64,000 bases of DNA from Vicinamibacteria bacterium. Lineage in GTDB: Bacteria; Acidobacteriota; Vicinamibacteria; Fen-336. Numbering within the stretch: position 1 is the stretch's first letter; each line of letters starts with the position of its first letter. The stretch is taken from positions 3,868 through 67,867 of the forward strand of contig JAFGSN010000052.1 in assembly GCA_016934575.1 (NCBI GenBank), read 5' to 3'. The notes beneath the pieces were generated by a model. The model was not told where the DNA came from and did not search any database. It saw only the letters and a list, made by a program, of their open reading frames with translations. Made by a program: the position numbers and the translations under genes. Positions 36,967 through 63,136 of the stretch are shown here, in pieces.

Positions 36967-37045
36967 TGCGCGAATCACGCGCCGGATGGGCCGCGGGTCG
37001 GCTCTCGGCCCCCTGGATCCCCTGGAGAGGTCGAATCGATACGCC

Positions 37046-43228: not shown

Positions 43229-43372
43229 GCTTCCCGAGCCTCCTGGCGATGATGAGTTGTCGCCGCTCACGCCAAAACTTCAAAGAGACCACGAGTGCGG
43301 TACGATGGCGGAGTCCGCGGATCGGCCGACGCCGAAGCCGCTGCCGGCGCGGCGCGGAATGGGAGAGGTCGA

Positions 43373-46451: not shown

Positions 46452-48066
46452 CGGCCGCCTCCGTCCACTCGGGAAGAGTGATGCGGAACACGGCGCCGCC
46501 TCCGTCTCTGTTCGCCGCCTCCAGCTTGCCTCCATGCTGGGCGACGATGGAGTTGCATACGGAGAGTCCGAGGCCGGTGGAGCCCTTCGTCGAGAAAAAC
46601 GGCTCGAAAATCCGATTCAGGTCGGCCGGCGAGACGCCGGGGCCGCGATCGGCGACCTCGATGCGTATCTGTCCGTCGCTCCGATCGGCGGTCAGGCGCA
46701 CCTCGCCCCCCTGAGGCTGAGCCTCGCAGGCGTTGAGCACGAGGTTCATGAGCACTTGCCCGAGCATCACGCTGTTTCCCATGACCATCAGCGGCCCCTT
46801 GCGCAGATCGACATCGAACGTCGTTTCACGGAAAGCGCGCCGCGATTCCACGAAAGCCGTCGTCTGTCGTGACAAATCTCCAACGTCTACTGGGCTGGCG
46901 GGGGCGCTCGTGGGATCGACCTGGGTGAGAACCTGCCGGACAGTGCCCGCGACACGCTCCATCCCCTCCTGTACGCCTTCCAGGCGACGGCGGACCGAGG
47001 AAACATCGGCGCGATCGAGATCATCCTTTGCCAGGGTCAGGTAATTGAGCATGCCCTCGAGCGGATTGTTGATCTCGTGAGCGATGCCGGCCACAACTCG
47101 CCCGACAGTGGCGAGCCGTTCGGAGTGAAAGAGCTGTCGCTCTAGTTCCCGAACCCGAGTCTCCTCGCGAGCCTGGCTCTCGAGCCTCACCTGGCGCCGA
47201 AGCTGGAGCACGCTGTAAAGACCCAACAACAAGGTCAGCGCCATCACTCCCAGGTCGACGACCAAGGTGAGGCGATAGCGGCGGGAGAGCGGTTCGACAA
47301 GACCGAGGATCGCCGCTCGGCTCCCCACGCAAGTCAGCTTCCATGGAGACGGCGCGGCCCAGCCTCCGGCCCGTACCAGTGACTCGGCCGTGAGGCGTTC
47401 AACGACGGCTTCGCTCTCCGGAATGCCGCCCGCCAGGGGCCAATCGCTGGCGTCCGTGAGCAGGCATTGCGGGGAAGCTTCGGATCTCGCCGGCGCGATC
47501 AGGCTGGAAGCGTCCAGCTCGGCCACCACACGCTGAGCCCTGGTCGTCGCGGCGTGAGTTCCTAGGCCGAAAACGCCCCGAATATGCGGCCGTCGTCCCA
47601 AGGCCGGCGGCGGCTGAACCATAACCTGTCTGTCGGAAGCAGGACGCCATACCATAGGAACGCCGCCGCGCCAGCCGGCTTCGACGAGCACACGGTTCTT
47701 TCCCACAAGGACGGAGATCCGCAAGATCTGAGGGTGTCCGCGAAGGAAGATGAGGAGGGCCGCTCCCGCGCCCTGGCGGTCCCAGTCGTTCCCTCCCGCC
47801 CCGGACGGATGGGTCTCCTCTCCTAGTCGAGTGATGGCGCTCGAGCCCGCTAGAAAGACGAGATCCATGCGGCTCTGCGACACGATATCCTGAATGGCGC
47901 GGGCGCGATTCTCCGTTTCGAGACGAAAGAGGCGATTCGCCTCCTCATCGAGACCCCGGCGGGCCATCGTGATGTCCCACAAGCCCGCCCCGTTGACGGC
48001 AACGACTATGGACAGCAGGAGAATCGTAAGCCAGCCAAGGTGAGTGTTGCTGCGGCGTATCTGCAT
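46444..48066 (-). CDS. Sensor histidine kinase with N-terminal TM/periplasmic sensor domain
   Basis: H-box HEINNPLEGM, N/G boxes DRGPGVSPADLNRIFEPFFSTKGSTGLGLSV; TM helices flanking ~270-aa periplasmic region; start ATG 48066 or GTG 48120. Confidence 0.75.
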   Translation of the reverse strand: MQIRRSNTHLGWLTILLLSIVVAVNGAGLWDITMARRGLDEEANRLFRLETENRARAIQDIVSQSRMDLVFLAGSSAITRLGEETHPSGAGGNDWDRQGAGAALLIFLRGHPQILRISVLVGKNRVLVEAGWRGGVPMVWRPASDRQVMVQPPPALGRRPHIRGVFGLGTHAATTRAQRVVAELDASSLIAPARSEASPQCLLTDASDWPLAGGIPESEAVVERLTAESLVRAGGWAAPSPWKLTCVGSRAAILGLVEPLSRRYRLTLVVDLGVMALTLLLGLYSVLQLRRQVRLESQAREETRVRELERQLFHSERLATVGRVVAGIAHEINNPLEGMLNYLTLAKDDLDRADVSSVRRRLEGVQEGMERVAGTVRQVLTQVDPTSAPASPVDVGDLSRQTTAFVESRRAFRETTFDVDLRKGPLMVMGNSVMLGQVLMNLVLNACEAQPQGGEVRLTADRSDGQIRIEVADRGPGVSPADLNRIFEPFFSTKGSTGLGLSVCNSIVAQHGGKLEAANRDGGGAVFRITLPEWTEAAGG

Positions 48067-48207
48067 GCCATGAAGACCCGAGTCGCACGCTAGCGTAGCG
48101 TGGATTCGCGACGAACGCACCCCGCCTGTCGTGCTCGATGTGCGCGCCTAGGCCGGATCATAGAGGATATTCGACCCCCGGTTGGCTCGCCCATAGATCG
48201 TATGGAG

Positions 48208-48310: not shown

Positions 48311-48326
48311 CGGCATGTGTATTGCT
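48311..48326 (+). promoter_or_regulatory. Sigma-54 (-24/-12) promoter candidate
   Basis: CGGCATG-TGTA-TTGCT matches TGGCACG-N4-TTGCW with exact GG/GC spacing (GG 48312-13, GC 48324-25); ~80 nt upstream of RidA-like ATG; adjacent to sigma54 activator gene; AT-rich spacer region. Confidence 0.5.
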
Positions 48327-48405: not shown

Positions 48406-49017
48406 ATGTTCAAGGAGCAATTCATGCCGGACAAGCAACAACACAAGATCGACCTCGGCCATCTGACGTCTGGCGGACGCGAAGAACTGGCGAAACTCGG
48501 CCTGCTCGGTTCGAATGACGCCGTGCTCGATTGCCCCTACCGTAAAGACGCCTCTCGATCTTCATCGATCTCTAAGCACGCCATATCGGCGCCCCAAGTG
48601 CTGAACGAGGCGCGCTGCTACGGCTCGTCTTTTCCGCGAGGCCTGCGACTTGAGCTCGGCGGATTGTCGGTCCTGCTCATCTCGGGGACGGCATCGATCG
48701 ACGAAAACGGGAAAACCGTCCATGTCGGCGATTTCGGCGCGCAGTGTTGGCGAACCTATCGCAATATCACGACGCTTCTGGCCGCAGAAGGCGCCACATG
48801 GCACGACGTCATTCGCACGACTAACTACCTGAGGGACATCGAGCGCGATTATGAGCCATTCAACGGAATCCGAACGTCATTCTTCACCTGGCTGGGCCTG
48901 AATCCGCTCCCGGCCAGTGTTGGCGTGCAGGCGCGGCTGTGCCGCAGCGATCTCTTGGTCGAGATCGAGGCCGTGGCTCTCATCCCACGCGGCGAGAAGG
49001 CCGAGCAAACGCGATGA
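48406..49017 (+). CDS. RidA/YjgF/TdcF-family protein with ~70-aa N-terminal extension
   Basis: GAGGAAG RBS before ATG 48406; C-terminal 130 aa match RidA fold (ISGTASIDENGKTV...NYLRDIE...VEIEAVA); track ORF from 48100 is an extension. Confidence 0.7.
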   Translation: MFKEQFMPDKQQHKIDLGHLTSGGREELAKLGLLGSNDAVLDCPYRKDASRSSSISKHAISAPQVLNEARCYGSSFPRGLRLELGGLSVLLISGTASIDENGKTVHVGDFGAQCWRTYRNITTLLAAEGATWHDVIRTTNYLRDIERDYEPFNGIRTSFFTWLGLNPLPASVGVQARLCRSDLLVEIEAVALIPRGEKAEQTR

Positions 49018-49044: not shown

Positions 49045-49329
49045 ATGACGACCCAATTTGAGTCGTCGATCCTGGCATGCGTTGAATCAACGGATCATCT
49101 CGGCGCCGCGACGCGATATAATCGCGCCGCTGTCGCGTGGAAAAAGCATCTCCTTGACGATTCGATCTCGGCGGTGGATATATCCGAGAACACGCATGGC
49201 GCACGGTCAACGGAGCCGAACGAAATCGAGGACATTTTTCGGCTGGTGCGCCGCGCCTCCGAGTATTTCCCGCTGAAGACGATGATTCGGCGGCGGATAA
49301 GCCGGCTGGAGGTCATCAGGCAGCAATGA
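49045..49329 (+). CDS. Small hypothetical protein
   Basis: 94-aa ORF (ATG 49045) between RidA-like gene and PD40 gene; overlaps next start; no recognisable domain. Confidence 0.3.
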   Translation: MTTQFESSILACVESTDHLGAATRYNRAAVAWKKHLLDDSISAVDISENTHGARSTEPNEIEDIFRLVRRASEYFPLKTMIRRRISRLEVIRQQ

Positions 49330-51407
49330 ACGTCATTCATCGTGACGAACAACACGGCTTGCGACGCGAGGCCCCGAGACTGCGGATTCGTCTGCTCGCG
49401 CTGGCGGTCTTTGTTACGACCGGCGATCCCGGGATCGCCTTGAACCGGCAGAGCGCTCCTGGAATCGCTGCGGCATTGTCCGCGAAACGTACGCCCTCGA
49501 TGTGCTTCGTCGTCACGCAATTGCCCATCGGCACGGCGGCCGAGAAGCAGGGGCCTCTTTCGGGCGGCATGTCGCCCGCCGACTGGGGCGCCGGCGCGCG
49601 GCTCGTTCTCGTCGAAGCGGGCAAGGTCTTCAAGGTGCTGACGTCCGATTTCGCGAGCGCCGCCGATCCCGACGTGTCCTTCGACGCCAAATCAATCGTC
49701 TTCGCCGGCCAGAAGCAAGCGGACGACCGTTGGGCCATCTACGAGATGAACGCCGACGGGAGCGGAGTGCGACAGGTCACGAGCGCGATCGATGATCTTC
49801 GCCAGCCCGTCTACCTACCAACAGTCCACACCATCATCGCCGACCCGACCAAGGGCACGGAGCCTCGACCTCAGATCGGCTACGTGCGTCTCTTCGACGC
49901 GTCACTCAACGAGGCCGGCGCCGGCCGCGCGCGGGCGATCTACTCCGTTCGAATCGACGGAGCATCGCCACGACGCCTGTCCTACAACTTGTCGAGCGAC
50001 ATGAACCCGACCGTTCTGAACGACGGCCGCATCGTCTATGCGAGCTGGCGGCGCGCGACGTTTTCACGCGGGGTCTCGGGTCGAATCGTGCTGCTCGGCA
50101 TCAACCCGGACGGCACGGACCCGGCGATCTTCGCGGGCGACGAAGGGCTGCGTCTCAAGCTCATGCCATGCGTGACGCGCGATCGCCTGGTGGCCTTCGT
50201 CGAAGCCGAAAGCGTGGGCTGGGACGGCGCCGGAAGCCTGGGATGCGTCAGCCTGCGCCGAAACCTGCACTCGCGCCGCCGGATCACCTTTGAGGGCGAC
50301 GGTCTCTTCCTTTCTCCGTCGGCCTTGTCTGACGGGCAGATCGTGGCGGCGCGACGCCCGCCAAACGGATCCGGCGATCACGGCATCGTCCGCGTTCATC
50401 CCGTTTCCGGCAAGGTGACGTCGCTCTTCGATGACGCCGCCTTCCATGACATTCAGGCGCGTGCGATTGCGCCGCGCCCGGCGCCCGACGGTCGATCGAG
50501 CGGCCTCAAGGACCCCGATGAAGAGGCGCATGCCGCCGAGTCCGGCGACGCGTCCCGGAAGGTTGCCATCCCGGACGTGACAATGTACGGCCTGAACGTC
50601 TATCTGAACGACTTGGGGCACGACTTGGCCGAAGGCGTCATCCGCCGCCTGCGCATCATTGAAGGCATGCCGTTGACCTCGACAAGCGGACCGGCAGCCC
50701 ATGGTCCCGAGCCGCTCGCTCCCCGAAGGCTCCTCGGCGAGGCGCCGATCGAGCCGGACGGCTCCTTCTACATCCAGATTCCGGCCGAGACGCCAGTGCA
50801 ATTCCAGATCCTCGATCAGGACGGCCTCGCGCTTCGCACGTCGGGTTGGATCTGGGGGCATTACAACGGCCGTCAGGGCTGCGTGGGCTGCCACGAAGAC
50901 CCGGAGCGAACGCCTCCAAGCCGCTTTGCCGACGCGCTCCGCAAGCCGGGCGTCAGGCTGATTCTTCCTCCCGAGCGCAGGCGTGCGGTGGATTACCGCC
51001 ACGACATCGCTCCCATCGTCAAGGCCCGCTGCGCCGGTTGCCACGGCGAGGACAAGATGGTGCGCCTGGACGGCGGCCTTTCCACAACAGGCGCGAGCGG
51101 CCGTTTCTCACGAGCATACGAGTCGCTGCTCGCCGAACTTGACCGTGCGCCCGGCGAGGTGGTCGGCCGGTACGTGCATCCCCATCAGGCGCGTACCAGC
51201 CCTTTGATCTGGCATATCCTGGGTCGTAACACCGCTCGGCCGTGGGATGGATCGGCCACGCGTGCGAAAGCCAAGCCGATGCCGATGAGCGCGGGCGCCG
51301 CCTTGAGCGAGGACGAACGCGGACTGTTCATCGAATGGATCGACATGGGAGCGCTATGGGACGCGTCGGCAGGGTCCACGTCCATGACGATCGGAGGAGC
51401 GCGATGA
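49326..51407 (+). CDS. Secreted PD40/TolB-like beta-propeller protein with C-terminal Planctomycete-type cytochrome c (PSCyt1-like) CxxCH domains
   Basis: Signal peptide region RLLALAVFVTTG; PD40-like repeats (DPDVSFDAKSIVFAG...IYEMNADGSGVRQVT); C-terminal CVGCHED and IAPIVKARCAGCHGEDKMVRLDGG matching PSCyt1 pattern. Confidence 0.65.
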   Translation: MNVIHRDEQHGLRREAPRLRIRLLALAVFVTTGDPGIALNRQSAPGIAAALSAKRTPSMCFVVTQLPIGTAAEKQGPLSGGMSPADWGAGARLVLVEAGKVFKVLTSDFASAADPDVSFDAKSIVFAGQKQADDRWAIYEMNADGSGVRQVTSAIDDLRQPVYLPTVHTIIADPTKGTEPRPQIGYVRLFDASLNEAGAGRARAIYSVRIDGASPRRLSYNLSSDMNPTVLNDGRIVYASWRRATFSRGVSGRIVLLGINPDGTDPAIFAGDEGLRLKLMPCVTRDRLVAFVEAESVGWDGAGSLGCVSLRRNLHSRRRITFEGDGLFLSPSALSDGQIVAARRPPNGSGDHGIVRVHPVSGKVTSLFDDAAFHDIQARAIAPRPAPDGRSSGLKDPDEEAHAAESGDASRKVAIPDVTMYGLNVYLNDLGHDLAEGVIRRLRIIEGMPLTSTSGPAAHGPEPLAPRRLLGEAPIEPDGSFYIQIPAETPVQFQILDQDGLALRTSGWIWGHYNGRQGCVGCHEDPERTPPSRFADALRKPGVRLILPPERRRAVDYRHDIAPIVKARCAGCHGEDKMVRLDGGLSTTGASGRFSRAYESLLAELDRAPGEVVGRYVHPHQARTSPLIWHILGRNTARPWDGSATRAKAKPMPMSAGAALSEDERGLFIEWIDMGALWDASAGSTSMTIGGAR

Positions 51408-53047
51408 AAAGCTGGACTGCCGCCGGAGCGATCATCCTTGTCGCGGCGACCGCGCCCGGCCAGGCGCAAGATCGGCCCTCCGGGCCGATCACTTTCACCG
51501 ACATCGCCGGACCAGCCGGCCTGGCCGCCTTCAAGCATAGCTACGGCGACCACGATCTCGACAACATCGTCGAGGCCACCGGCGTGGGGCCGTGCCTGTT
51601 CGACTATGACGGAGACGACGATCTGGACGTCTACTTCCCTAACGGTCGTTGGACGAAGGGTCTTTCCGATAATCGTGGCCGCAATCTGATCGGGAAACTC
51701 AAGAACGCCCTCTACCGCAACAACGGCGACGGCACGTTCACCGATGTCACGAATCGGGCCGGCGTGGCCGGCAAAAGCGCCGGTTACTCCGCGTCGGCGG
51801 CCGACTATGACGGAGACGGCGACCTCGATCTCTACCTATGCAATTACGGACCGAATGAGCTCTATCGCAACAACGGCGACGGCACGTTCACCGACGTCAC
51901 GGCCGAAGCGGGCATCGGCGATCCGCTCTTCAGCCTCTCGGGCGTCTGGCTCGATTACGACGGCGACGGCGATCTCGATCTCTTCGTCTGCAACTATCTC
52001 GAATACGATGAAGGCAAGTTCCGCTCTTTTTACGCGGCCACGGGTTTTCCCGGACCGCTGTCGTACAACGGCCAGCCCGACACGCTGTACCGCAACAACG
52101 GCGACGGCACGTTCACCGACGTGACCAAGGCGGCCGGCGTCTACTTCGAGCAAGGCCGCGGCATGAGCGCGACCGCCGCGGATCTGAATAATGACGGCCT
52201 AGTCGACATCTATGTCGCAAACGACGCTATGGAGAACAACTACTTCGAGAACAGCGGCAAGGGATCCTTTATCGATAATGGGCTGCTGACGGGACTGGCG
52301 TTCGGGCAGAACGGCCAGGGCGTCTCCTCGATGGGTCCCGCCGTCGGCGATATCGATCGCGACGGCCATCTGGACATCCTGATTCCCGATATGGACTACA
52401 TGAGCCTTCTCGTCTGGCGCGACGGCATATATGAGGATCATGTCGATCGCTCCAACATCGCCGTGATCAGCGGTCAGTACACCGGATGGGGCGGCGTGCT
52501 TTTCGACTTTGACAACGACGGCTATCTTGACGTATTCATCGCTAACGGCCACCCCCATCATGAATATCCAGAAAACGCCGTGCTGGCGCGGAACAACGGC
52601 AAGGGCGTCTTCGTCGACGTCGCGCGCCATGCGGGCGAGTACTTTGGAACGAAGAAATGGTACTCGCGCGGAACGGCGTATGCCGACATTGACGACGACG
52701 GCGATCTCGATCTGCTGGTAATGGACCTCAACGGCCACCCGCACTTGCTGCGCAACGACGGCGGCAACACGGCCAACCACTGGCTCAAGTTCGACGTGCG
52801 CCGCGCCGACGGCAAGCTGGCCGCGATTGGAGCCCGCGTCACGGTCGTCGTCGGGGGCTTGAAGTTGATTGACGACGTTTCGCCCGTCCGCGGCTATCTC
52901 GCGCAGAACGATCCGCGCCTTCACTTCGGGCTTGGCAAAGCGGTCAAAGCCGACTTGGTGGAGATCCGCTGGCCGGACGGCCGAACACGGCGGATGAAGG
53001 ACGTGCCGTCGAATCAAATCCTGAAGGTGACTCCCGATGCTCGCTAG
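51404..53047 (+). CDS. CRTAC1-family protein (FG-GAP/VCBS repeats + ASPIC/UnbV domain), secreted; paralog of 43373..45079
   Basis: ATGA overlap with upstream gene, GGAGGAG RBS; signal peptide MKSWTAAGAIILVAATAPGQA; DYDGDGDLD FG-GAP repeats; C-terminal UnbV_ASPIC-like. Confidence 0.7.
   Translation: MKSWTAAGAIILVAATAPGQAQDRPSGPITFTDIAGPAGLAAFKHSYGDHDLDNIVEATGVGPCLFDYDGDDDLDVYFPNGRWTKGLSDNRGRNLIGKLKNALYRNNGDGTFTDVTNRAGVAGKSAGYSASAADYDGDGDLDLYLCNYGPNELYRNNGDGTFTDVTAEAGIGDPLFSLSGVWLDYDGDGDLDLFVCNYLEYDEGKFRSFYAATGFPGPLSYNGQPDTLYRNNGDGTFTDVTKAAGVYFEQGRGMSATAADLNNDGLVDIYVANDAMENNYFENSGKGSFIDNGLLTGLAFGQNGQGVSSMGPAVGDIDRDGHLDILIPDMDYMSLLVWRDGIYEDHVDRSNIAVISGQYTGWGGVLFDFDNDGYLDVFIANGHPHHEYPENAVLARNNGKGVFVDVARHAGEYFGTKKWYSRGTAYADIDDDGDLDLLVMDLNGHPHLLRNDGGNTANHWLKFDVRRADGKLAAIGARVTVVVGGLKLIDDVSPVRGYLAQNDPRLHFGLGKAVKADLVEIRWPDGRTRRMKDVPSNQILKVTPDAR
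51710..52140 (+). repeat. Three near-identical ~41-nt intragenic direct repeats (LYRNNGDGTFTDVT-coding) within CRTAC1 paralog
   Basis: CTCTACCGCAACAACGGCGACGGCACGTTCACCGATGTCACG at 51710, 51860 and 52085 with 1-3 mismatches; corresponding repeats in paralog 43373..45079 are much more diverged. Confidence 0.7.
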
Positions 53048-53069
53048 AAACGAAAGGCCTCCGCGCGCG

Positions 53070-55973
53070 ATGCGTTACAAGAGAGCTCTCGCGTTGCTGC
53101 TCGTGCCGCTCGCATGGGTCTTCGTCCATGCGCCGGGGCGTCCGTCCGTTCGCGCCGCCGGCAAGGATCCGATCTATGTCGGATCCCACGCCTGTGCGAA
53201 GTGCCACGACGGCGCGGGCATGGGCCACCAGTATAGCAAATGGCTTCTCGGCCGACACGCACGCGCGTACGCCTCGCTGAGCCTTCCGGAGTCGCGCCAG
53301 ATCTCGGATCTTTCCGGAATTCCAGGCGATCCGCACGACTCCCCGATGTGCCTCGGCTGCCATGCCACCGGCTCGGATGCGGAGCCGTGGCAACGCGACG
53401 CCGCGTTTCATACGGCGGACGGCGTCCAGTGCGAGAAGTGCCACGGTCCCGGCAGCGAGTATATGGACATGGAGGTCATGCAAAACCGCGAGGCAGCCAT
53501 GATGGCCGGCCTCATGATGCCCGCCAAGAAGGACTGCATGCTCTGCCACTACGTCAAGGGGTCGCACGCGGCCGTGCACAAGCGGCCGCTGATCGACGTC
53601 GAGAAGGCATGGATGAAGATCGCGCATCCCACGCCCAAGAGCGCATCGCCGGGCGGCCCCGCCGGCGTGGGCAAGACGGTTTCCCTGAAAGGTCCCAAGT
53701 ACGCGGGCGTCGATGCCTGCGGCGCCTGCCACAACACAGCCATGATGAACCGCCAAGCCAATCGCTGGAAAATGACGGCGCATTCCCGGGCCTGGGCCGT
53801 GCTGGCGACGCCGAAGGCCTTCGAGATTGCGAAAGACAAGGGCCTGACCGGAGCGCCCCAGCAGACGGCGCAGTGTCTCAAGTGCCACGCGACCGGCCAT
53901 GGGCAAGACCCCGGCCGTTTCCTGGCGAGCGCACGAATCACCGAAGGCGTGACTTGCGAGGCGTGTCACGGACCCGGCAGCGAGTACATGCCCGAGGCCG
54001 TCATGCGCGACCGACTAGCCGCCAGGAAAGCCGGTTTGGTCGAACCGACGGCCGAGAGCTGCATGGGCTGCCACCAAAACGCCCACGGCAAGACGTTCGA
54101 CGCGGTGATGGCGATGAAAAAAATCGCCCATCCCATGAAGCCTCCCATGGCGACCATGGCAAAGACGGCCGAGTTCTCGATCCCGCCGAGCCGGAGCGGC
54201 TACAAGACGCCGCGCCACCTCGCCGTCCGTCCCGACGGCGCCGAAGTCTGGATCGCCTGCGAAGCCAGCGACAGCCTGATCATCGTCGACGTGAAGAAAC
54301 GGCTGAAGACGGCGGAAATCAAGGTCGGCGGGCAGCCTCACGACGTGGCGTTCGAGCCTGACGGGAAGCGCGCCTTCGTCTCCAATCGTCTCGATGACAG
54401 CGTCTCGGCCATAGACGTCGCGTGCCGCAAGGTTACGGCGACCATTGCGGTCGGCGACGAGCCACACGGGTTGGTCGTCAACAAGTCCGGCGCACTGCTC
54501 TTCGTGCTCAACTCCGCCAGTGAAGACATCTCGGTGATCGACCTTGAGGAGCTGCGCGAGCTACGCCGGCTCAAGGCCAGCCGTTTCCCATGGTCGCTCG
54601 CGCTCTCTCCCGACGGCCGGCGCATCGTGGCCACGAACACGCTCTCCAAGCTCGTGCCCTTCCGGCAACCGTCGGTTTCCGAGCTGACCGTGATCGACGC
54701 CGAGAAAGGCCGTATCGCGGACCGGCTGGAGGCGCCTGGCGCGAACTTGCTTCAGGGTGTGGACTGGCACCCTTCGGGCCGCTTCGCCCTCTTCACGCTG
54801 AACCGCACCAAGAACCTTGTTCCCATGACGCGCATCCACCAGGGTTGGACGATCACGAACGGTTTAGGCGTCGCCTGGGCTGACGGGCGCGTCGATCAGG
54901 TCCTGCTGGACGAGCCCAACTGGTACTTCGCCGACGCCTCCGACGTGGCCATCACGCCCGACGGCCGCCTAGCTTTCGCCACCAGCCAGGGCACGAATCG
55001 CGTCGCTGTTGTCGACGTCGAGCGACTCATCGATCTGTTGCAGAAAGCGTCGCTACGCGATCGCGCCGAGGTGATCCCGAACCACCTCGGCAAATCGGCC
55101 GAGTTCATCGTGAACTACGTGGAGACGCCGGATGCTCCGCGCGGCGTGGCCGTGACGCCGGATGGCACGACGGCGTTCGTGGCCAATCAGCTCGACGACT
55201 CGCTCACCGTGATCGACGTGGGAAGCAGGGCGTCCGTGGCGCGCATCGACCTGGGCGGGCCCAGGGAGGTCACGCACACGCGCTGGGGCGAGAAACTCTT
55301 CCACAGCGCCAACATCACTTTCCAGCGGCAGTTCGCTTGCGCCTCCTGCCACCCGGACGGCCACGTGGACGGTCTGACTTATGACATCGAGGCCGACGGC
55401 ATCGGCATCAATCCCGTGGACAATCGCACGCTGCGCGGGATCTACGACACCGATCCCTTCAAATGGGAAGGAACGAATCCATCGTTGGCGCGGCAATGCG
55501 GCGCGCGCTTGGCGGCGTACTTTACGCGCATTCAGCCGTTCACTCCCGAGGAGCTTTCGGCCGTGAACGACTACACGGTGACGATCCCTCGTCCTCCCAA
55601 CCGATACCGCGCCGCCGGCGCCGAGCTCACCGCGGCGCAAGCTCGGGGCAAGTTGGTGTTCGAGCGCACGCACGGCGCGGATGGCAAGGAGATCCCCGTT
55701 GACAATCGCTGCATCACCTGTCACTTCCCGCCCTACTATACGGATCGCAGCAAGCGGGACGTCGGCTCCAAGCACTGGCTGGACAAGCAGGGCATCTTCG
55801 ACGTGCCGCACCTCAACAACATCTACGACTCGGCGCCGTACTTGCACAACGGCATCGCCGACACGCTCGAGGAAATCTGGACGCGCTTCAATCCATACGA
55901 CACGCACGGCGTGACGAACGACATGACCAAGGACCAGTTGAACGACCTGATCGAATACCTGAAAACACTGTAG
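53070..55973 (+). CDS. Multidomain c-type cytochrome: 8 CxxCH (2x tetraheme c554-like) + YVTN beta-propeller + C-terminal di-heme cytochrome c peroxidase/MauG-like domain
   Basis: Signal peptide MRYKRALALLLVPLAWVFVHA; CxxCH motifs CAKCH, CLGCH, CEKCHGPGSEYM, CMLCH, CGACH, CLKCH, CEACHGPGSEYM, CMGCH, then CASCH and CITCH in CCP-like C-terminus (DVPHLNNIYDSAPYLHNG, LIEYLKTL); YVTN-like repeats between. Confidence 0.8.
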   Translation: MRYKRALALLLVPLAWVFVHAPGRPSVRAAGKDPIYVGSHACAKCHDGAGMGHQYSKWLLGRHARAYASLSLPESRQISDLSGIPGDPHDSPMCLGCHATGSDAEPWQRDAAFHTADGVQCEKCHGPGSEYMDMEVMQNREAAMMAGLMMPAKKDCMLCHYVKGSHAAVHKRPLIDVEKAWMKIAHPTPKSASPGGPAGVGKTVSLKGPKYAGVDACGACHNTAMMNRQANRWKMTAHSRAWAVLATPKAFEIAKDKGLTGAPQQTAQCLKCHATGHGQDPGRFLASARITEGVTCEACHGPGSEYMPEAVMRDRLAARKAGLVEPTAESCMGCHQNAHGKTFDAVMAMKKIAHPMKPPMATMAKTAEFSIPPSRSGYKTPRHLAVRPDGAEVWIACEASDSLIIVDVKKRLKTAEIKVGGQPHDVAFEPDGKRAFVSNRLDDSVSAIDVACRKVTATIAVGDEPHGLVVNKSGALLFVLNSASEDISVIDLEELRELRRLKASRFPWSLALSPDGRRIVATNTLSKLVPFRQPSVSELTVIDAEKGRIADRLEAPGANLLQGVDWHPSGRFALFTLNRTKNLVPMTRIHQGWTITNGLGVAWADGRVDQVLLDEPNWYFADASDVAITPDGRLAFATSQGTNRVAVVDVERLIDLLQKASLRDRAEVIPNHLGKSAEFIVNYVETPDAPRGVAVTPDGTTAFVANQLDDSLTVIDVGSRASVARIDLGGPREVTHTRWGEKLFHSANITFQRQFACASCHPDGHVDGLTYDIEADGIGINPVDNRTLRGIYDTDPFKWEGTNPSLARQCGARLAAYFTRIQPFTPEELSAVNDYTVTIPRPPNRYRAAGAELTAAQARGKLVFERTHGADGKEIPVDNRCITCHFPPYYTDRSKRDVGSKHWLDKQGIFDVPHLNNIYDSAPYLHNGIADTLEEIWTRFNPYDTHGVTNDMTKDQLNDLIEYLKTL

Positions 55974-56013: not shown

Positions 56014-57219
56014 ATGATGCGCGTAATCATTAAAGTCTCGGCCGCGGTTCTGGCCGTCTTGACGCCGGTGGCCGCCTTCGCCGAGGCGACGCATGCGTCG
56101 CCTCGAGGATTGCCTTATGTCTATACAAAATGGAAGCATTTCACGATCGAGAACGGCTTGCCGAACAATCACGTCTTCGCCGTGCGCTCCAACGGGAACG
56201 ATCTTTGGGTCGGCACTGAAAACGGGCTGGCGCTGATCGACAAGCGCCAGAGCAAGGTCGTCAAGGTCTGGCAGGAAAAGGACGGCCTCCCCTTCCGATC
56301 GATCGCCGGCATCGATGTCGACAAAAACACCGGCGACGTCTGGCTCGGCCTTTTCGGCGGCGGATTGGCGCGCCTTTCGGGCGACCGTTTCGATCACTGG
56401 CACCAGTTGAACAGCGGTCTCGTCAACGACGTCGTCTACGACGTGGTCATGGAGCACGAGAACGTCTGGTGCGCCACGACCGCCGGGGCCTCGCGCTTCA
56501 ACCCAAAAACCGGCGAGTGGGCGATCTTCACTGAAAAAAACGCCCCCATGGAGGAAATCTGGAACTACGCCGTCGATTACGACCCGCAAGCGAACAAGGT
56601 CTTCCTGGCGATCTGGGGCTCGGGCGTGCTCGAATACGACGTGGCGACGGACCGCTGGCAGGAATACGTCGACCCGGACGGAGAAATGGAAATCGACCTT
56701 TACCGCGACGACGGCGTCAACCACGTCATTGTCACCGGCGTAACCAGCATCGACGGCGCCATGTGGGTTTCCTCCTACTTCGGCGGCACGCGCTATGACG
56801 GCCGGAGCTGGCTCGGACTGCCGGACATCGAAGGCGGACTGCCGAGCCTGTTCAACAATAACGTCAAGGGCCGGAGCGCTCACGAGGCCTGGTTTTGCTC
56901 GGACAAGGGCGCGGGCGCGATCGTGGATCTCGATCCCGAAACCTGGGTCCAGTACGTGCGCGACGGCCGCGGCGGACGCGCGATCGTGAAGCAACGCCTG
57001 AAGCCGGAGGACAAGACCCTGACGACGGTCGAGGTAGTCGAAACGGGCGTCAACGCACCCCACTCCTTCATCGTCAACGCCGACGTCGAGGGCAACGACG
57101 TCTTCCTGGGAACGTCGCACGGACTGGGCTGGGGCGTCGGCGAGGGCTATTATCCGCGCCTCAAGGAACGACCGCTCATCGGGGCTGCGCCCAAGGCGGA
57201 TGTCGCCACACAAAGGTAG
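56014..57219 (+). CDS. Secreted beta-propeller protein with two-component-regulator-propeller (Reg_prop)-like repeats
   Basis: Signal peptide MMRVIIKVSAAVLAVLTPVAAFA; repeats NGLPNNHVFAVRSNGNDLWVGTENGLALID typical Reg_prop. Confidence 0.6.
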   Translation: MMRVIIKVSAAVLAVLTPVAAFAEATHASPRGLPYVYTKWKHFTIENGLPNNHVFAVRSNGNDLWVGTENGLALIDKRQSKVVKVWQEKDGLPFRSIAGIDVDKNTGDVWLGLFGGGLARLSGDRFDHWHQLNSGLVNDVVYDVVMEHENVWCATTAGASRFNPKTGEWAIFTEKNAPMEEIWNYAVDYDPQANKVFLAIWGSGVLEYDVATDRWQEYVDPDGEMEIDLYRDDGVNHVIVTGVTSIDGAMWVSSYFGGTRYDGRSWLGLPDIEGGLPSLFNNNVKGRSAHEAWFCSDKGAGAIVDLDPETWVQYVRDGRGGRAIVKQRLKPEDKTLTTVEVVETGVNAPHSFIVNADVEGNDVFLGTSHGLGWGVGEGYYPRLKERPLIGAAPKADVATQR

Positions 57220-57272: not shown

Positions 57273-58748
57273 ATGAAACGCCAATCGGTCATTGTAATCA
57301 TGCTGCTTTTCGCCGCCGGATTCGCTTTTCCCGGCGACGGACGGAAGGCAACGCCGCTCAAGGAGTGGATCGAATTCGATCATCCCAAGATTCTCGCGTT
57401 GCTCAATCACATCAACGGCTTGGACGCGTACACGGTTCCTCCGCTCGAGGTTCGCAAGGACGAAAACTACGCCGGCACGGCCGTTGACGTCGAGCCCTTC
57501 GGAGGCGTGCGACCCTACAACGAGTTCTTCCTCCAGCAGATGGAGTACACAGGGCCTGGACGAGCCGAACCCGAACCCGAACACCTCGACACGGTGAAGA
57601 TCGGTTTCATCGGTCCCATCATGTCCACGGTCTCGGTCGCCACCGGCGGCAAGAGCCACGAGGAGACGCTTGGCATTCCAATGCTGCAGGGCGCGCGTCT
57701 CGCTCTCGAACAGTGGAACGAGCGCGGCGGCTATCTCAAGCGCAAGATTCCCTTTGAGCTAGTCGTTAGCAACGACAACGGACTGTGGGGCGCATCCGGC
57801 AACGAGATCATCAAGCAGAACTACAAGGACAAGGTGTGGGCGATCCTCGGGACGATCGACGGCGCCAACAGCCACATCGCCATCCGCGTGGCGCTCAAGT
57901 GCGAGGTCGTGATGATGAACACCGGCGACACGGATCCGACCTTCATCGAAACCAACATCCCCTGGGTTTTTCGTAACATCGGCGATGACCGGCAGCAGAG
58001 CTATCTCCTGATCGACTACGCATACCGCAAGATGGGTTACAAAATGCTCGGCATCATCCGCGCCAGCAACCGCTATGGCCGTTTCGGCGTGCGCGAGGTC
58101 CGCGACAGCGCGCGACGGTTGGGCAAGCCCGTGCCGCTGGAGATGGCCTACCAGGTGGGTCAGGAGGACTTCGCGCTCGAGATCGAGCGTTTGCGGAAGT
58201 CCGGCGTCGACGCCATCGTGCACTGGGGCGACGCGGTCGAGGGCGCCAAGATCCTCAACCAGATGCGCGCCATGGGCATGAAGCATCCCTACCTGGCCTG
58301 CGATCGCTGCGTTCAGGCTGATTTTGCGAAGATCGCCGGCGCCAACGCCGAGGGCGTCGTCTGTGCTTACCCCTGGAATCCCGAGAGCCAGACGAAGTTG
58401 TTCGTGAAGTTCCGCGACGCCTACCGCGCCCGTTTCGGCCAGGAACCCGAGACCTACGCCGCCCACGCTTACGACGGCATGAACATGATCATTTGGTCGA
58501 TCCAGGCGGCAGGCCTCAATCGCGCCAAGATGCGTGACGTGCTGGCCTACATGCCCGAGCCCTGGCCGGGAGTTACCGGCGATATTCAGCTCTCGGCCTG
58601 TCTTGACGACGTGGGCGACGTCTTCCTGGCGAAATACGAGAACGGCGACTGGAACTACTATTCGCGCACGGATCTCGACATTCCCAAGGGTTACATCCCG
58701 CCTCGCGATCGCGTGAGTCGTCCGGACATCGAGATCGCGCGGAAGTAA
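57273..58748 (+). CDS. Periplasmic binding protein type I (LivK/Peripla_BP_6-like), orphan
   Basis: AGGAG RBS then ATG 57273; signal peptide MKRQSVIVIMLLFAAGFAFPG; PBP-I fold features; no ABC permease/ATPase genes nearby; track ORF from 56895 is an extension. Confidence 0.7.
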   Translation: MKRQSVIVIMLLFAAGFAFPGDGRKATPLKEWIEFDHPKILALLNHINGLDAYTVPPLEVRKDENYAGTAVDVEPFGGVRPYNEFFLQQMEYTGPGRAEPEPEHLDTVKIGFIGPIMSTVSVATGGKSHEETLGIPMLQGARLALEQWNERGGYLKRKIPFELVVSNDNGLWGASGNEIIKQNYKDKVWAILGTIDGANSHIAIRVALKCEVVMMNTGDTDPTFIETNIPWVFRNIGDDRQQSYLLIDYAYRKMGYKMLGIIRASNRYGRFGVREVRDSARRLGKPVPLEMAYQVGQEDFALEIERLRKSGVDAIVHWGDAVEGAKILNQMRAMGMKHPYLACDRCVQADFAKIAGANAEGVVCAYPWNPESQTKLFVKFRDAYRARFGQEPETYAAHAYDGMNMIIWSIQAAGLNRAKMRDVLAYMPEPWPGVTGDIQLSACLDDVGDVFLAKYENGDWNYYSRTDLDIPKGYIPPRDRVSRPDIEIARK

Positions 58749-58756
58749 GGGGCGGC

Positions 58757-59986
58757 GTGTCTGCCCCCGCGCCGGCTCCAGGGCCGCGTGGCCGCCTTCT
58801 GGTTGCTCCGTCCACGCCGGGCCTGCTGCTTCTCCTGGCGACAGCGACCATGGCCGTCGCGCAGGAAAGCCGCCCCGCGCCGTTCTTCGATGCGCGTACA
58901 TATCAGACGGAATACGTAGGGCCCGGACGGGACGCGCCCCAACCGACGGACCTGAACGAAGTGCGGATCGCTTACTTCGGACCCGCCGATGAGGGCCATC
59001 CCGACTGGGGCGAGGCATGGCGCGGCGCGAGTCTCGCGATAGAGAAGGCCAACGCCAACGGCGGCCATCAGGGCAAACCGTTCCGTCTGCTCTCGGCTTG
59101 GTCGGACAATCCTTGGGGTTCAGGTGTCGCCGACCTCGCCAGGCTGGCGTTCAAGGAAGGCGTCTGGGCGATCGTGGGCGGCGTTGACGGCGCCACGACG
59201 CACCTCGCCGAGCAGATCGCCGTCAAGGCCAGGCTACCGCTCGTGAGCCCGGGATGCACGGACCCGAGCGTCAACTTCACCAACGTGGCATGGATGTTCA
59301 CTCTTCTTCCCACTGACGACCGGATCGCGCCCTTGCTCGCGAAATCCATCGTCGAGAGAAACGCGGATAAGTCGTGGGCCGTCGTCACAACGAACAACCG
59401 CGACGTTCGCGCGGCATGGAGCGCTCTCCGCCTCGGGCTTGCGGCGCGTCGCGCGCGGTCGCCGTCGCTCCACTTGACGTTGACGACTTCGACGCCAGAG
59501 TGCGCACGCGCCGCCCGCGAAGTCGCGCGACACAAACCGCGCCTCGTGCTGGTTCTCGCGACCGCCCGCGACGGCGCTCGCATCATCAAAGCGCTTCGAT
59601 CTGCGGGTTGCGACGGAAACGTCATGGGCGGCGCATCGTTCGGACATCGGCCGTTCTCGCTAGAAGCAGGCCCGACGGCCGATGGAGTCGCTTTCCCCTT
59701 GCTCTTCGACCCGGAAAACCCGGATGCGGACGCCTTCATTCGAGCCTACAAGGCCCGTTGGGGCTCGCCGCCGGACTTTCTGGCGGCCAACGCATACGAC
59801 GCGACGGATCTGATCGTTGGCGCCGTGGACCGGGCCGGCCTGAATCGCGTCCTGATACGCGACGCTCTCGCAACGCTCGCGCCCTGGGACGGAGTCGCGG
59901 GCCGAATCGCCTGGGATTCCACCGGACGGAACATGCGTCCAGTCACGATGGGCGTCTGGCATGACGGCCATGTACGCCGGCGATAG
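58757..59986 (+). CDS. Second periplasmic binding protein type I (LivK-like), orphan paralog
   Basis: GTG start 58757; hydrophobic signal region LLLLLATATMAVAQES; IAYFGP, GVWAIVGGVDG PBP-I-like motifs. Confidence 0.6.
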   Translation: MSAPAPAPGPRGRLLVAPSTPGLLLLLATATMAVAQESRPAPFFDARTYQTEYVGPGRDAPQPTDLNEVRIAYFGPADEGHPDWGEAWRGASLAIEKANANGGHQGKPFRLLSAWSDNPWGSGVADLARLAFKEGVWAIVGGVDGATTHLAEQIAVKARLPLVSPGCTDPSVNFTNVAWMFTLLPTDDRIAPLLAKSIVERNADKSWAVVTTNNRDVRAAWSALRLGLAARRARSPSLHLTLTTSTPECARAAREVARHKPRLVLVLATARDGARIIKALRSAGCDGNVMGGASFGHRPFSLEAGPTADGVAFPLLFDPENPDADAFIRAYKARWGSPPDFLAANAYDATDLIVGAVDRAGLNRVLIRDALATLAPWDGVAGRIAWDSTGRNMRPVTMGVWHDGHVRRR

Positions 59987-60892: not shown

Positions 60893-61383
60893 GCGCGACC
60901 GTCATCGCCTATCGACCGATCGGCGTAATCCGTAGCGAACATTTCGTCGTGGACAAGACGCCCATCCAGCCGATCTATGCGCGCGGATGCAAAGGGCAGG
61001 CGGAGGTGTTCCCGGAACACTCGGAGGGATTGAAAGACCTGGACGGCTTCTCTCACCTCTACCTCATTTATCACTTCCACCAAGCCGGGCCGTCGCGACT
61101 GGTCGTCGAGCCGTTTCTCCAGGACGTTGCGCGCGGAGTGTTCGCGACACGCGCTCCTTGTCGTCCCAATCCCATCGGCTTGAGCGTCGTGGAGCTGATC
61201 GGCCGTGACGGCAACGTTCTCCAGCTTGATGGCCTCGATGTTCTGGACGGCACGCCGCTGCTCGACATCAAGCCGTACACGGCCAAGTTCGACCGTATCG
61301 ACGGCACGCGCAACGGCTGGCAGGACTTTTTGGACGATGGAACTGCCGGAAGGCGAGGAAAACGCGGGTACAAGGAACCATGA
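60889..61383 (+). CDS. TsaA/YaeB (TrmO)-like SAM-dependent methyltransferase-fold protein
   Basis: GTGA overlap with upstream stop; PIGVIRSEH, LDGFSHLYLIYHFH, GVFATRAPCRPNPIGLS, DGTPLLDIKPY motifs typical of TsaA family. Confidence 0.8.
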   Translation: MSATVIAYRPIGVIRSEHFVVDKTPIQPIYARGCKGQAEVFPEHSEGLKDLDGFSHLYLIYHFHQAGPSRLVVEPFLQDVARGVFATRAPCRPNPIGLSVVELIGRDGNVLQLDGLDVLDGTPLLDIKPYTAKFDRIDGTRNGWQDFLDDGTAGRRGKRGYKEP

Positions 61384-62258
61384 AGACGTATCTCGACTGC
61401 ATTCCCTGCTTCGTGCGCCAAGCGCTGGAGGCGGTTCGTCCTCTCACAACCGACGTCGCCGTCCACGAGCGAATCGTCCGGGAAGTTCTCCGCTCCGCCG
61501 CGGAAATGGATTTCGCGCAGTCGCCTCCGTCAATGGGACAGTTTATTCATCGACGATTGCGCGAGATTACCGGCGTCGCGGACCCGTATCGCGACAAGAA
61601 GATCAGCTTCAATCGCATGGCTCTGGAAATGCTCGCCGAGAACAAGGCCCGTGTCGAAGCCGCGTCGGATCCCCTGGGAACCGCCGTTCGCCTAGCCGTC
61701 GCCGGGAACGTCATCGATCTGGGCGTCAAGGGCGGCCTGACGGAAAGCGATGCTCGCGAGGCGATTGAAAGAGCGCTTTCGGAGCCCCTCCACGGCGACG
61801 TGAACGAGCTGCGCCGCGCCCTATCCTCGGCCCGGCGCATTCTCTACCTGACCGACAATGCCGGCGAGATCGTTTTCGACCGTTTGCTCATCGAACAGCT
61901 TCCCCTGGATCGCGTGACCGTCGCCGTCCGCGGGCGTCCGATCATCAATGATGCGACTCTGGAAGACGCCGTCGCCGCCGGGCTCGATTCGCTAGTTGAA
62001 GTCATCGACAACGGATCGGACGCTCCGGGCACGATCCTGAGCGATTGCAGCGAAGGCTTCAGGGAACGATTCCGGACGTCCGATCTGATCATCGCCAAGG
62101 GCCAGGGCAATTTCGAAACGCTCTACGACGACGGGAACGACGTCATGTTCTTGTTCAAGGCGAAATGCCCCGTGATCGCCGCTCACATCGATCTGCCCCT
62201 GGGATCGCACGTGATGACAAGGCCGCCGAAAGCGGCGCGGGACGCGCGATGCCTCTGA
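61380..62258 (+). CDS. DUF89 (ARMT1-like) family protein
   Basis: ATGA overlap; MKTYLDCIPCFVRQALEA N-terminus and overall pattern of DUF89 metal-dependent phosphatase/damage-control family. Confidence 0.7.
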   Translation: MKTYLDCIPCFVRQALEAVRPLTTDVAVHERIVREVLRSAAEMDFAQSPPSMGQFIHRRLREITGVADPYRDKKISFNRMALEMLAENKARVEAASDPLGTAVRLAVAGNVIDLGVKGGLTESDAREAIERALSEPLHGDVNELRRALSSARRILYLTDNAGEIVFDRLLIEQLPLDRVTVAVRGRPIINDATLEDAVAAGLDSLVEVIDNGSDAPGTILSDCSEGFRERFRTSDLIIAKGQGNFETLYDDGNDVMFLFKAKCPVIAAHIDLPLGSHVMTRPPKAARDARCL

Positions 62259-63136
62259 ATACCCCGCCCGATCTGCGAGTCGTCGTGGCTTCCGGCAAGG
62301 GCGGAACCGGAAAGACGACGGTCGCGCTGAATCTTGCAAGCGTCGTGGCCGCGCCGGTGCAGCTTCTGGACTGCGACGTGGAGGAGCCGAACGTCCACCT
62401 GTTCCTCGAAGGCTCGACACGAAGCCGGGAGATCGTGTCGATTCCAGTTCCCGAGGCGGACGCGTCTCTCTGCGACGCCTGTGGCGAATGCAGCCGCTTC
62501 TGCCAGTATGGCGCGATCGCCGTTCTCAAGGATCGCCCGCTCGTGTTCGCCGAGCTATGCCACGGATGCGGCGGCTGTGTCAGGGTCTGTCCGAGGAGGG
62601 CGCTCCATGAGGTCGGACGACGGATCGGAACGGTTGAGGTGATCGCCGCGAATCACGTCACGCTCATTCAGGGTCGGCTCGACGTGGGCGTGGCCATGGC
62701 GCCGCCCCTCATCAAGGCCGTCAAGGCGCGCATGCGCGCCGGATCGATCGCGATCCTGGACGCTCCGCCGGGCACATCGTGTCCGGTGATCGCCGCGTTG
62801 CGCGATTCGGACGTCGCCGTGCTCGTTACCGAACCGACGCCTTTCGGCCTTCACGATCTGAAGCTGGCCGTCGAGACGGTTCGCGCGATCGGCGTTCCTC
62901 TGGGAGTGGTCGTCAATCGCGTCGGTATCGGCGACGATCGAGTGCATGCCTATTGCAGCGAACAGAGCCTCCCTGTTCTCGCGGAGATCCCGGACGACCG
63001 GCGCGTCGCCGAGGCCTATTCCAGAGGCGAGATCATTGTGAGCGCGTTGCCGGATTACCGGTCCGTTTTCGAGCGGCTGTGGGATTCCGTCGTGGATCTC
63101 GGCGCGCGGCAAGGAGATCAACATGCCGATGTATGA
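62249..63136 (+). CDS. MinD/ParA/Mrp-family P-loop ATPase with inserted 2x[4Fe-4S] ferredoxin domain
   Basis: Deviant Walker A GKGGTGKTT; two Cys clusters CDACGECSRFC and CHGCGGCVRVCP; start ATG 62249 overlapping DUF89 3' end. Confidence 0.8.
   Translation: MPLNTPPDLRVVVASGKGGTGKTTVALNLASVVAAPVQLLDCDVEEPNVHLFLEGSTRSREIVSIPVPEADASLCDACGECSRFCQYGAIAVLKDRPLVFAELCHGCGGCVRVCPRRALHEVGRRIGTVEVIAANHVTLIQGRLDVGVAMAPPLIKAVKARMRAGSIAILDAPPGTSCPVIAALRDSDVAVLVTEPTPFGLHDLKLAVETVRAIGVPLGVVVNRVGIGDDRVHAYCSEQSLPVLAEIPDDRRVAEAYSRGEIIVSALPDYRSVFERLWDSVVDLGARQGDQHADV

Follow-up and report, generated by a model that had tools for sequence, protein, structure and literature searches.

Genes resembling those of the hydrazine synthase (HZS) of anammox bacteria occur outside Brocadiales and have been read in opposite ways, as signs of anammox potential (PMC11828985; PMC10732223) and as non-functional homologs (PMC12758564). 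Here we describe one such locus in a 64-kb stretch of DNA (64,000 nt; the window, which is the part of the genome in view) from contig JAFGSN010000052.1 of a Vicinamibacteria bacterium. The gene of interest (53070..55973, + strand) encodes a secreted protein with ten CxxCH heme motifs. This 10-heme protein is a Vicinamibacteria (Acidobacteriota) member of the published clade I family of HZS homologs, which is functionally uncharacterised. An original prediction, made from the sequence before any database search, had regarded the architecture as unrecognised; it has in fact been published as the clade I HZS β-γ homolog (PMC12758564).

Clade I was described by Hagglund et al. (2025, Genome Biol Evol; PMC12758564). 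Its loci comprise an α homolog, a CRTAC1/FG-GAP gene, a β-γ fusion and two downstream genes for binding proteins, and the eight extra N-terminal heme motifs of the β-γ proteins were classed as two c554 domains. Carriers include Aquisphaera giovannonii, Thermogutta terrifontis, Novipirellula artificiosorum, Syntrophobacter fumaroxidans, and Paludibaculum fermentans. Key HZS residues are not conserved in clade I, and the authors propose no function. Dalcin Martins et al. (2023; PMC10732223) reported hzsA-like genes beside fused hzsBC-like genes in Phycisphaerae, in metagenome-assembled genomes (MAGs) from an Fe/Mn-cycling biofilm, and offered two explanations, anammox bacteria not seen before or an enzyme family of wider scope. 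In cold seeps, a study from 2025 (PMC11828985) found hzs-like genes in non-Brocadiales MAGs of ten phyla, including Acidobacteriota, reported that they were transcribed, and read them as anammox potential.

The 10-heme protein contains two c554-like modules

The gene lies within an open reading frame (ORF) that is open from 53037 to 55973 (+). The NCBI annotation of the MAG starts the gene at 53037, which gives 978 amino acids (aa), and the window protein is 100% identical to this annotated Vicinamibacteria protein. We favor the start at 53070 (MRYKRALALLLVPLAWVFV...), which agrees with the family consensus N terminus, begins a Sec-type signal peptide and lies 22 nt past an upstream stop codon. 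From this start the protein is 967 aa long and is secreted. In the signal peptide (aa 1-30; 53070..53159, +), MRYKRALALLLVPLAWVFVHAPGRPSVRA, a basic n-region precedes a hydrophobic core. Its first Met is also where the family consensus begins, and the cleavage site is a predicted one.

The protein contains exactly ten CxxCH motifs. In 2,000 shuffles of its residues, the mean number of such motifs was 0.017 and the maximum was 1. All ten are invariant in 20 relatives. As had been predicted, the first eight are arranged as two repeats, each with the signature CE(K/A)CHGPGSEYM. A motif scan places four in a first tetraheme cytochrome c554-like module (53160..53639, +; CxxCH at aa 42, 94, 121, and 156) and four in a second (53682..54149, +; aa 217, 269, 296, and 331). 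The modules are an internal duplication, with 42% identity to each other (E = 8e-40). Pfam Cytochrome_C554 matched the protein in two stretches at 6.9e-34 and 117 bits, above its cutoff of 20.8, and the top stretch covers aa 216-301 in module 2.

Module 2 also matched the structure of Nitrosomonas europaea cytochrome c554 (1BVB; PF13435), at 2.3e-9 with the single sequence and 9.4e-13 with a family profile. Like c554, each module has four CxxCH motifs, spaced much as in that cytochrome, and carries the signature CExCHGPG. Unlike c554, the modules are in tandem and fused to an enzyme, and the invariant Met of their GSEYM contrasts with GRNF in c554. The NCBIfam equivalog for Nitrosomonas c554 scored 57 bits against a cutoff of 400, and the modules are not orthologs of that cytochrome. 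Outside the motifs, His63, His166, His186, and Met137 are invariant in module 1, and His238, His354, and Met312 in module 2, where His339 is present in 17 of 20 sequences. Each module thus has sufficient invariant His and Met residues outside its motifs to serve as heme ligands along a complete chain for electron transfer.

The propeller and di-heme domain resemble HZS-β and HZS-γ

The c554-like modules are followed by an HZS-β-like seven-bladed YVTN propeller (aa 375-724; 54192..55241, +) and an HZS-γ-like di-heme domain with the cytochrome c peroxidase (CCP)/MauG fold (aa 725-967; 55242..55970, +). The propeller of about 350 aa was correctly recognized in the original prediction: YVTN repeats (TIGR02276) matched aa ~375-725 at 8.7e-38, and the AlphaFold2 (AF2) model of this part has a predicted local distance difference test score (pLDDT) above 90. 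It carries a helical insertion at aa ~650-678 and a conserved flexible loop at aa 582-594. The last two CxxCH motifs, at aa 757 and 881, lie in the C-terminal domain, where the strings that had been quoted for it, DVPHLNNIYDSAPYLHNG and LIEYLKTL, are also present. Landmarks of this domain are the heme I motif (C757/C760/H761), Trp799, a putative third heme link at C810, the heme II motif (C881/C884/H885), and conserved His926 and His946.

The top NCBIfam match of the 10-heme protein was the HZS β-γ fusion (2.2e-62, 211 bits against a cutoff of 1250), and the separate models hydrazine_beta (8.6e-47, 160 bits against 560) and hydrazine_gamma (4.9e-22, 78 bits against 625) matched the corresponding domains. 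In sequence searches of the PDB, the propeller matched HZS-β (5C2V_B) at 8.7e-38 with the single sequence and 4.6e-51 with a family profile, and the di-heme domain matched HZS-γ (5C2V_C) at 6.4e-17 and 5.1e-26, respectively. With the same kind of profile, matches to CCP sequences reached 1e-5 to 8e-4. Structure comparison gave the same order. For the propeller, Foldseek placed 5C2V_B first (1.6e-31, template modeling (TM) score 0.89 on the target), eight orders of magnitude ahead. For the di-heme domain, modeled separately at pLDDT 89, 5C2V_C came first (1.3e-13, query TM 0.73), followed by YhjA (2.6e-8), MbnH (5.7e-8), N. europaea CCP (4.5e-7), and MauG (~1e-5), at probability 1.00. Thus, the propeller and the di-heme domain are specifically HZS-β-like and HZS-γ-like, and we are nearly certain of the identity and architecture of the protein as an HZS homolog of the β-γ type.

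The C-terminal domain had been called CCP/MauG-like. Pfam CCP_MauG (PF03150) reached 19.3 bits against a threshold of 25.6, and the NCBIfam models CytoC_perox (13.5 against 150 bits), MauG (15.9 against 444), and MbnH (26 against 363) also remained below their cutoffs. The earlier label holds at the level of the fold, but HZS-γ leads CCP and MauG in both sequence and fold and is the nearest relative. The domain mapping proposed with the prediction thus recovered Cytochrome_C554 and YVTN matches, with CCP_MauG under threshold.

This architecture is found at full length in over 100 independent clusters and at 18 genome loci, and we therefore rejected a gene-fusion or assembly artefact.

A protein with ten hemes could also be an extracellular conduit that passes electrons to minerals (metal oxide, Fe/Mn), rather than an enzyme acting on a small molecule. 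A weak match to MtrC/MtrF domains II/IV (7.2e-13) and the occurrence of hzs-like genes in MAGs of the Fe/Mn-cycling biofilm fit this idea. The MtrC match, however, overlaps the c554-like modules and scores below the c554 match. Moreover, conservation peaks in the γ-like domain, with its invariant open-site heme motif and Cys810, and no outer-membrane porin or lipoprotein signal was found in the gene cassette to which the protein belongs. We consider a mineral conduit very improbable.

Residue tests separate the family from genuine HZS

To compare the window family with genuine HZS, we aligned it to subunits encoded by anammox hzs loci of several genera, among them a locus that is 100% identical to the Kuenenia HzsA query fragment (L084) and one with fused hzsBC (L097). 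The α comparison used the HZS-α-like protein encoded upstream of the 10-heme gene (49326..51407, +; 693 aa), which has an N-terminal propeller, an HZS_alpha middle domain (PF18582; 1.2e-19, above the gathering cutoff) and two heme motifs, CVGCH and CAGCH. It matched NCBIfam hydrazine_alpha at 1.6e-61 (208 bits against a cutoff of 800) and, from end to end, 5C2V_A (5.3e-46 for the single sequence, 8.2e-70 for a family profile). Two relatives depart from CXXCH at the second heme motif of the α-like protein, which there has the form CX4CH, CAAAGCH or CASAACH (L001 6367..8295; L002 6317..8389).

The locus has much in common with anammox HZS as seen in Kuenenia (5C2V): the same three folds, two hemes in α and two in γ, and a β tunnel loop. 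Homologs of all three subunits are present and co-located, and the β-γ fusion resembles the Scalindua-type HzsBC of L097. These features, together with a retained heme-crosslinking Cys in γ and the published anammox claims for such genes (PMC10732223; PMC11828985), would be expected if the locus encoded a genuine hydrazine synthase and the Vicinamibacteria host were a cryptic anammox bacterium.

The sequences themselves point away from this reading. Identity to the Kuenenia subunits is 27% for α, 28% for β, and 36% for γ, compared to 61-77% among distant anammox genera. None of the NCBIfam HZS equivalog cutoffs (α, β, γ, and β-γ fusion) was reached, with scores 4-8x below them. In α, the CxGCH-x-G-S590-Y591 found in 5/5 HzsA is replaced by an invariant CxGCHED(P/G)E, so that Ser590 and Tyr591 are absent. 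In HZS, Tyr591 is proximal to heme α-I, whose motif residue His587 faces a Zn site instead. The Cys303 Zn-ligand site (YGNCDGE) falls in a 5-residue deletion; this is a weak criterion, since Scalindua-type HzsA also lacks that Cys. His772, the distal ligand of the bis-His heme α-II, lies in GR(L/V)(L/M)H(N/D) in 5/5 HzsA and is Ala, Gly, or Ser in the family. In β, the flexible loop at aa 582-594 aligns with the tunnel loop of HZS-β and has conserved flanks and low pLDDT, but CEAEN has become TR(I/L)xQ and the Mg-binding Glu is gone.

In γ, the heme I motif (Cys102, Cys105, His106), Cys165, and Arg167 are kept, and Glu122 is changed conservatively to Asp. Cys810 of the window protein aligns with γ Cys165; all 20 family members have this Cys, as do 33/97 of the wider γ-like domains. 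It probably forms a third covalent link to heme I, as Cys165 does in HZS-γ. Asp168, which in HZS lies 4.08 Å from the iron and holds an axial water/OH- (PMC12607021; bioRxiv 10.1101/2023.01.22.525020), is Asp in 5/5 anammox sequences and Leu (Leu814) in the window family; Phe and Leu are commonest in wider relatives. His144 is replaced by Trp799, as in CCP and MauG, and Trp occupies this position in 74/97 domains. The anammox-specific γ insertions of 10 and 35 residues are absent. His946 (94/97 γ-like domains) and His926 (92/97) align with His residues conserved in HZS-γ, where heme II is bis-His. His946 sits at the His of the HZS-γ "D-x-HG" motif and is a candidate ligand of heme II in the window protein, which may then be bis-His as well.

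The genomic context differs as well. Genes are ordered α-x-β-γ in the window family and B-C-A in anammox loci, and the octaheme HDH/HAO gene that is adjacent in anammox loci is not found in the window. Unlike anammox HZS, the window family has eight more hemes, an inserted FG-GAP gene, and three extra cassette proteins. Some cultured clade I carriers grow aerobically, which also counts against anammox. The residue tests on α, β, and γ rule out genuine HZS in our judgement, and we assign that hypothesis a minimal probability. Together, the residue and context tests indicate that the protein is a clade I family member and not a hydrazine synthase; Hagglund et al. likewise reject HZS function for clade I (PMC12758564).

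At four of six genuine anammox loci (L089, L097, L099, and L101), an ORF of ~520-560 aa with eight CxxCH motifs lies directly downstream of hzsA; it has no counterpart beside the window cassette.

Compared point by point with clade I as published (PMC12758564), the window locus shows no essential difference. It has the two C-terminal and eight N-terminal heme motifs, the fused β-γ, and the gene order α, FG-GAP, β-γ, two binding proteins. Cys is present at γ Cys165 and Trp at γ His144, the α homolog has both heme sites, and α Tyr591, Cys303, and His772 and the β-loop Glu are not conserved. What we add is the change of γ Asp168 to Leu, a regulator-type propeller as a fixed fourth gene, and binding proteins that lack both a transporter and LivJ-type residues. 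The first two are small additions beyond the main text of that study.

The γ-like domain and the CCP/MauG fold

The replacement of His144 by Trp799 bears on another reading, which is close to that of the original prediction: the protein could be a CCP-type enzyme that reduces H2O2 at heme I, with the octaheme wire in place of a soluble cytochrome donor. Hagglund et al. equate the Trp at the Trp799 position with the catalytic Trp of CCP/MauG (PMC12758564), and the absence of the anammox-specific insertions makes the family more CCP-like. The domain shares with di-heme CCP, MauG, and MbnH (PF03150) a two-domain di-heme fold (Foldseek 2.6e-8 to 1e-5, query TM ~0.55-0.64), a Trp between the hemes, the motif (F/Y)D(V/T)P.L..(I/V)Y...PY.H.G, and a C-terminal helix, and the fold matches to YhjA and N. 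europaea CCP and the profile matches to CCP sequences agree with this relationship.

However, HZS-γ is nearer by about five orders of magnitude or more, and the Pfam CCP_MauG and NCBIfam CytoC_perox models stayed below threshold. The Cys810 link is a feature of HZS-γ and not of CCP; this extra conserved Cys, the fusion to a propeller and eight hemes, and the co-conserved α-like partner all set the window domain apart from CCP, MauG, and MbnH. His946, as a putative ligand, would make heme II bis-His, unlike the His/Met of CCP or the His/Tyr of MauG. Finally, a peroxidase would not need a di-heme α-like partner and four other co-conserved proteins. A CCP-type function is therefore quite unlikely in our estimate. 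For the proposal that a peroxidase or MauG-like oxidation acts on a bound macromolecule, we found no specific support.

Clade I relatives are numerous and span several phyla

We compared the 10-heme protein with its relatives and found at least 1,354 clusters (90% identity) that match it at E <= 1e-5. The best 120 of these are full-length (~950-1000 aa) and 59-79% identical across phyla, and their database names are generic, such as "YVTN/lactonase beta-propeller". Full-length copies occur in Solibacteraceae, Thermoanaerobaculia, Sedimentisphaerales, Phycisphaerales, Thermoguttaceae, Pirellulales, Verrucomicrobiota, Gemmatimonadota, and Fibrobacterota, and a β-γ-only form in Opitutaceae. With the γ-like domain as the query, we obtained 122 clusters (50% identity) at E <= 1e-30, mostly propeller-plus-γ fusions of 600-680 aa without N-terminal hemes. 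The γ-like domain is also the most conserved part of the 10-heme protein. The original prediction had held that membership in a common annotated family with known function would speak against it. The family is indeed common and published, but has no known function.

A conserved six-gene cassette encodes secreted proteins

The original prediction had treated the 10-heme protein on its own. To examine its neighbors, we compared all ORFs against all others in the window and 21 related loci (22 in total). The protein belongs to a cassette of six genes in the order α-like, CRTAC1/FG-GAP, 10-heme β-γ, regulator-type propeller, binding protein 1, binding protein 2, so that the HZS-α-like di-heme partner and four other secreted proteins are conserved with it. 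Signal peptides are present on 6/6 cassette products, and each gene starts close behind the stop of the one before it or overlaps it. The β-γ gene is present at 22/22 loci, the α-like and FG-GAP genes each at 21/22, the regulator-type propeller at 20/22, and the paired binding proteins at 19/22. The loci come from at least five phyla (Acidobacteriota, Planctomycetota, Verrucomicrobiota, Gemmatimonadota, and Fibrobacterota) and have unrelated flanks; three of them (L001-L003) have the same gene order.

The second gene (51404..53047, +) encodes a secreted CRTAC1-like FG-GAP/ASPIC-UnbV propeller protein (Pfam FG-GAP_3, 2.1e-49; UnbV_ASPIC, 8.6e-23). Its start overlaps the stop of the α-like gene (ATGA) and it has a GGAGGAG ribosome-binding site and a signal peptide. 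Downstream of the 10-heme gene lies a gene for a secreted, stand-alone regulator-type (Reg_prop) β-propeller of ~400 aa (56014..57219, +). In searches of the PDB, its family profile matched two periplasmic sensor propellers, 4A2L at 4.9e-26 and 3V9F at 2.8e-23, which belong to hybrid two-component systems of Bacteroides.

The last two genes encode orphan periplasmic binding proteins of the HAAT/Peripla_BP_6 type. Binding protein 1 (57273..58748, +; Pfam Peripla_BP_6, 1.2e-37) has an N-terminal extension of ~130 aa, and binding protein 2 (58757..59986, +) matched the same family at 9.9e-38. The best PDB match of both is 4MLC (8e-21 and 1.4e-20, respectively). No ABC permease or ATPase genes were found in the cassette, and none recurs across the 22 loci. 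We rejected a relationship to the substrate-binding protein (SBP)/propeller system associated with pyrroloquinoline quinone (PQQ) dehydrogenases; no such NCBIfam matches were obtained, and only generic HAAT models were hit. In alignments to LivJ at ~18% identity, the canonical amino-acid-binding residues are missing from both proteins. In 19 orthologs of binding protein 1, Asp is invariant at the positions aligned to LivJ residues 78, 101, and 226 (~18% identity), which suggests an acidic pocket and, weakly, a cationic ligand.

The gene that precedes the cassette (48406..49017, +; Pfam Ribonuc_L-PSP, 1.8e-15) encodes a protein in which a Rid (YjgF/L-PSP) domain is extended at the N terminus. 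Its start codon is uncertain, as the ORF opens at 48100. Since a Rid homolog lies upstream of the cassette at only 6/22 loci, its association is loose.

These neighbors raise the possibility of an oxidative enzyme, in which the crosslinked heme would oxidize hydroxylamine, hydrazine, or an amine, a cationic nitrogen compound that the binding proteins may capture, and electrons would leave through the c554-like modules, or in which the oxidation is MauG-like. In ammonia oxidizers, c554 natively takes up electrons from HAO, which fits such a direction of flow. In oxidative HAOs, the P460 cofactor combines heme-protein crosslinks with oxidative chemistry on nitrogen, and Trp799 resembles the Trp of MauG. 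Two binding proteins without a transporter, three invariant Asp residues at pocket positions of one of them, and an occasional Rid-domain neighbor would also be in keeping. On the other hand, the pocket assignment rests on ~18% identity and on the roles of LivJ residues, and the Rid association is weak. The cassette contains neither a candidate precursor protein nor a quinone-reducing membrane partner, and in real HZS heme γ-I is reductive. We regard an oxidative enzyme as unlikely.

A candidate periplasmic heme enzyme on the HZS scaffold

As a clade I HZS homolog, the 10-heme protein would be the β-γ-type subunit of a periplasmic, multi-protein heme enzyme that is homologous to anammox HZS. 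Its eight N-terminal hemes would act as an integral wire, carrying electrons to or from generic redox carriers of the periplasm. In anammox bacteria, a separate cytochrome is usually assigned this role. From the wire, electrons may reach heme II, which is probably bis-His, and pass by way of Trp799, as in CCP and MauG, to heme I. Heme I would be an open-site heme ligated by His761 and probably linked a third time through Cys810, and a small ligand would be transformed there. An intermediate could then travel along the β-loop region to the heme of the α-like subunit, which would serve as a second site. We judge the reading as a whole, a clade I β-γ subunit in a wired periplasmic heme enzyme, to be the best explanation, with a probability somewhat above even, and we hold the scheme of wire, di-heme domain, and partner to be about equally probable.

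The nature of the reaction is less certain. By its sequence, the α-like site would hold a canonical His-ligated heme, with no Tyr591 and no Zn site; together with the Asp168-to-Leu change in γ, this argues that the product would not be hydrazine. Heme γ-I of real HZS binds nitric oxide (NO), and its redox potentials fit the reduction of NO to hydroxylamine; the α-like heme should be reducible, unlike heme α-I of HZS. For these two reasons, our guess is a reductive reaction, in which NO or a species at the level of hydroxylamine would be converted to ammonium or N2O in detoxification or respiration. By analogy to HZS such a nitrogen-oxide substrate is possible, and we propose it tentatively, at well below even probability. 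Broader still, the six-gene cassette may encode a periplasmic nitrogen-cycle enzyme on the HZS scaffold, an NO or hydroxylamine reductase or another converter of small nitrogen compounds, with a Cys-crosslinked heme, an octaheme wire, and cation-binding accessory proteins, that is ancestral to hydrazine synthesis. This last proposal is speculative, and we consider it rather doubtful.

Several observations weigh against a wired nitrogen-oxide enzyme. The distal pocket in γ differs from that of HZS (Asp168 to Leu, His144 to Trp), which makes NO chemistry an extrapolation, and the direction of electron flow is not readable from sequence. Heme-to-heme geometry gains no support from the full-length AF2 model of the 10-heme protein, which has a mean pLDDT of 59 and values below 50 in the heme domains. 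No nitrogen-cycle genes (nir, nor, hao, hdh, or nrf) recur as neighbors across the 22 loci. No other multiheme ORF is present in the 64-kb window, and none recurs near the 22 loci. A search of the literature turned up no data on expression or phenotype for cultured clade I carriers. Nor does the model account for the roles of the FG-GAP and regulator-type propellers or of the paired binding proteins.

The window locus is a clean and complete Acidobacteriota example of clade I, and its residue tests against genuine anammox sequences back the interpretation of Hagglund et al. (PMC12758564). As the locus supports the non-HZS reading, it is a warning against the use of HzsA or HZS_alpha-domain matches to mark anammox in metagenomes. 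Clade I is abundant, strongly conserved, and present in cultured strains. Identification of its reaction would probably bring a new heme enzyme of the periplasm into the metabolism of nitrogen oxides or peroxide and show the origin of HZS. If the nitrogen-cycle proposal were true, the enzyme would be widespread among the Acidobacteriota, Planctomycetota, Verrucomicrobiota, and Gemmatimonadota of soils and sediments and would represent the ancestral chemistry of hydrazine synthesis.

Other genes in the window

A second CRTAC1-like FG-GAP/ASPIC paralog is encoded ~6 kb upstream of the cassette (43295..45079, +; FG-GAP_3, 1.2e-48; UnbV_ASPIC, 1.8e-16) and clusters with the FG-GAP gene of the cassette. 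Between this paralog and the Rid-like gene, and divergent from the cassette, genes for a sigma-54-dependent (NtrC-type) response regulator and a histidine kinase occupy 45057..48120 (-). In the 22-locus survey, this two-component pair was not conserved at other loci. A scan of the window for sigma-54 promoters gave 19 matches where 18.7 were expected, which is not significant. The sole plausible box is a weak -24/-12-like CGGCAT-N5-TTGCT upstream of the Rid-like gene (48311..48326, +).

Further upstream, a single ORF of 2080 aa (36986..43228, +) combines a DUF748/YhdP/TamB-like region (aa 24-1336), three POTRA repeats, and a C-terminal Omp85 barrel (aa 1789-2080). Its product would unite a TamB-like and a TamA/BamA-like protein in one chain. 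Downstream of the cassette, an ORF at 61380..62258 (+) encodes an ARMT1-like damage-control phosphatase (Pfam, 6.7e-70), and an ORF that overlaps it (62045..63136, +) has matches to MinD/ParA-type ATPase and 4Fe-4S ferredoxin-type domains.

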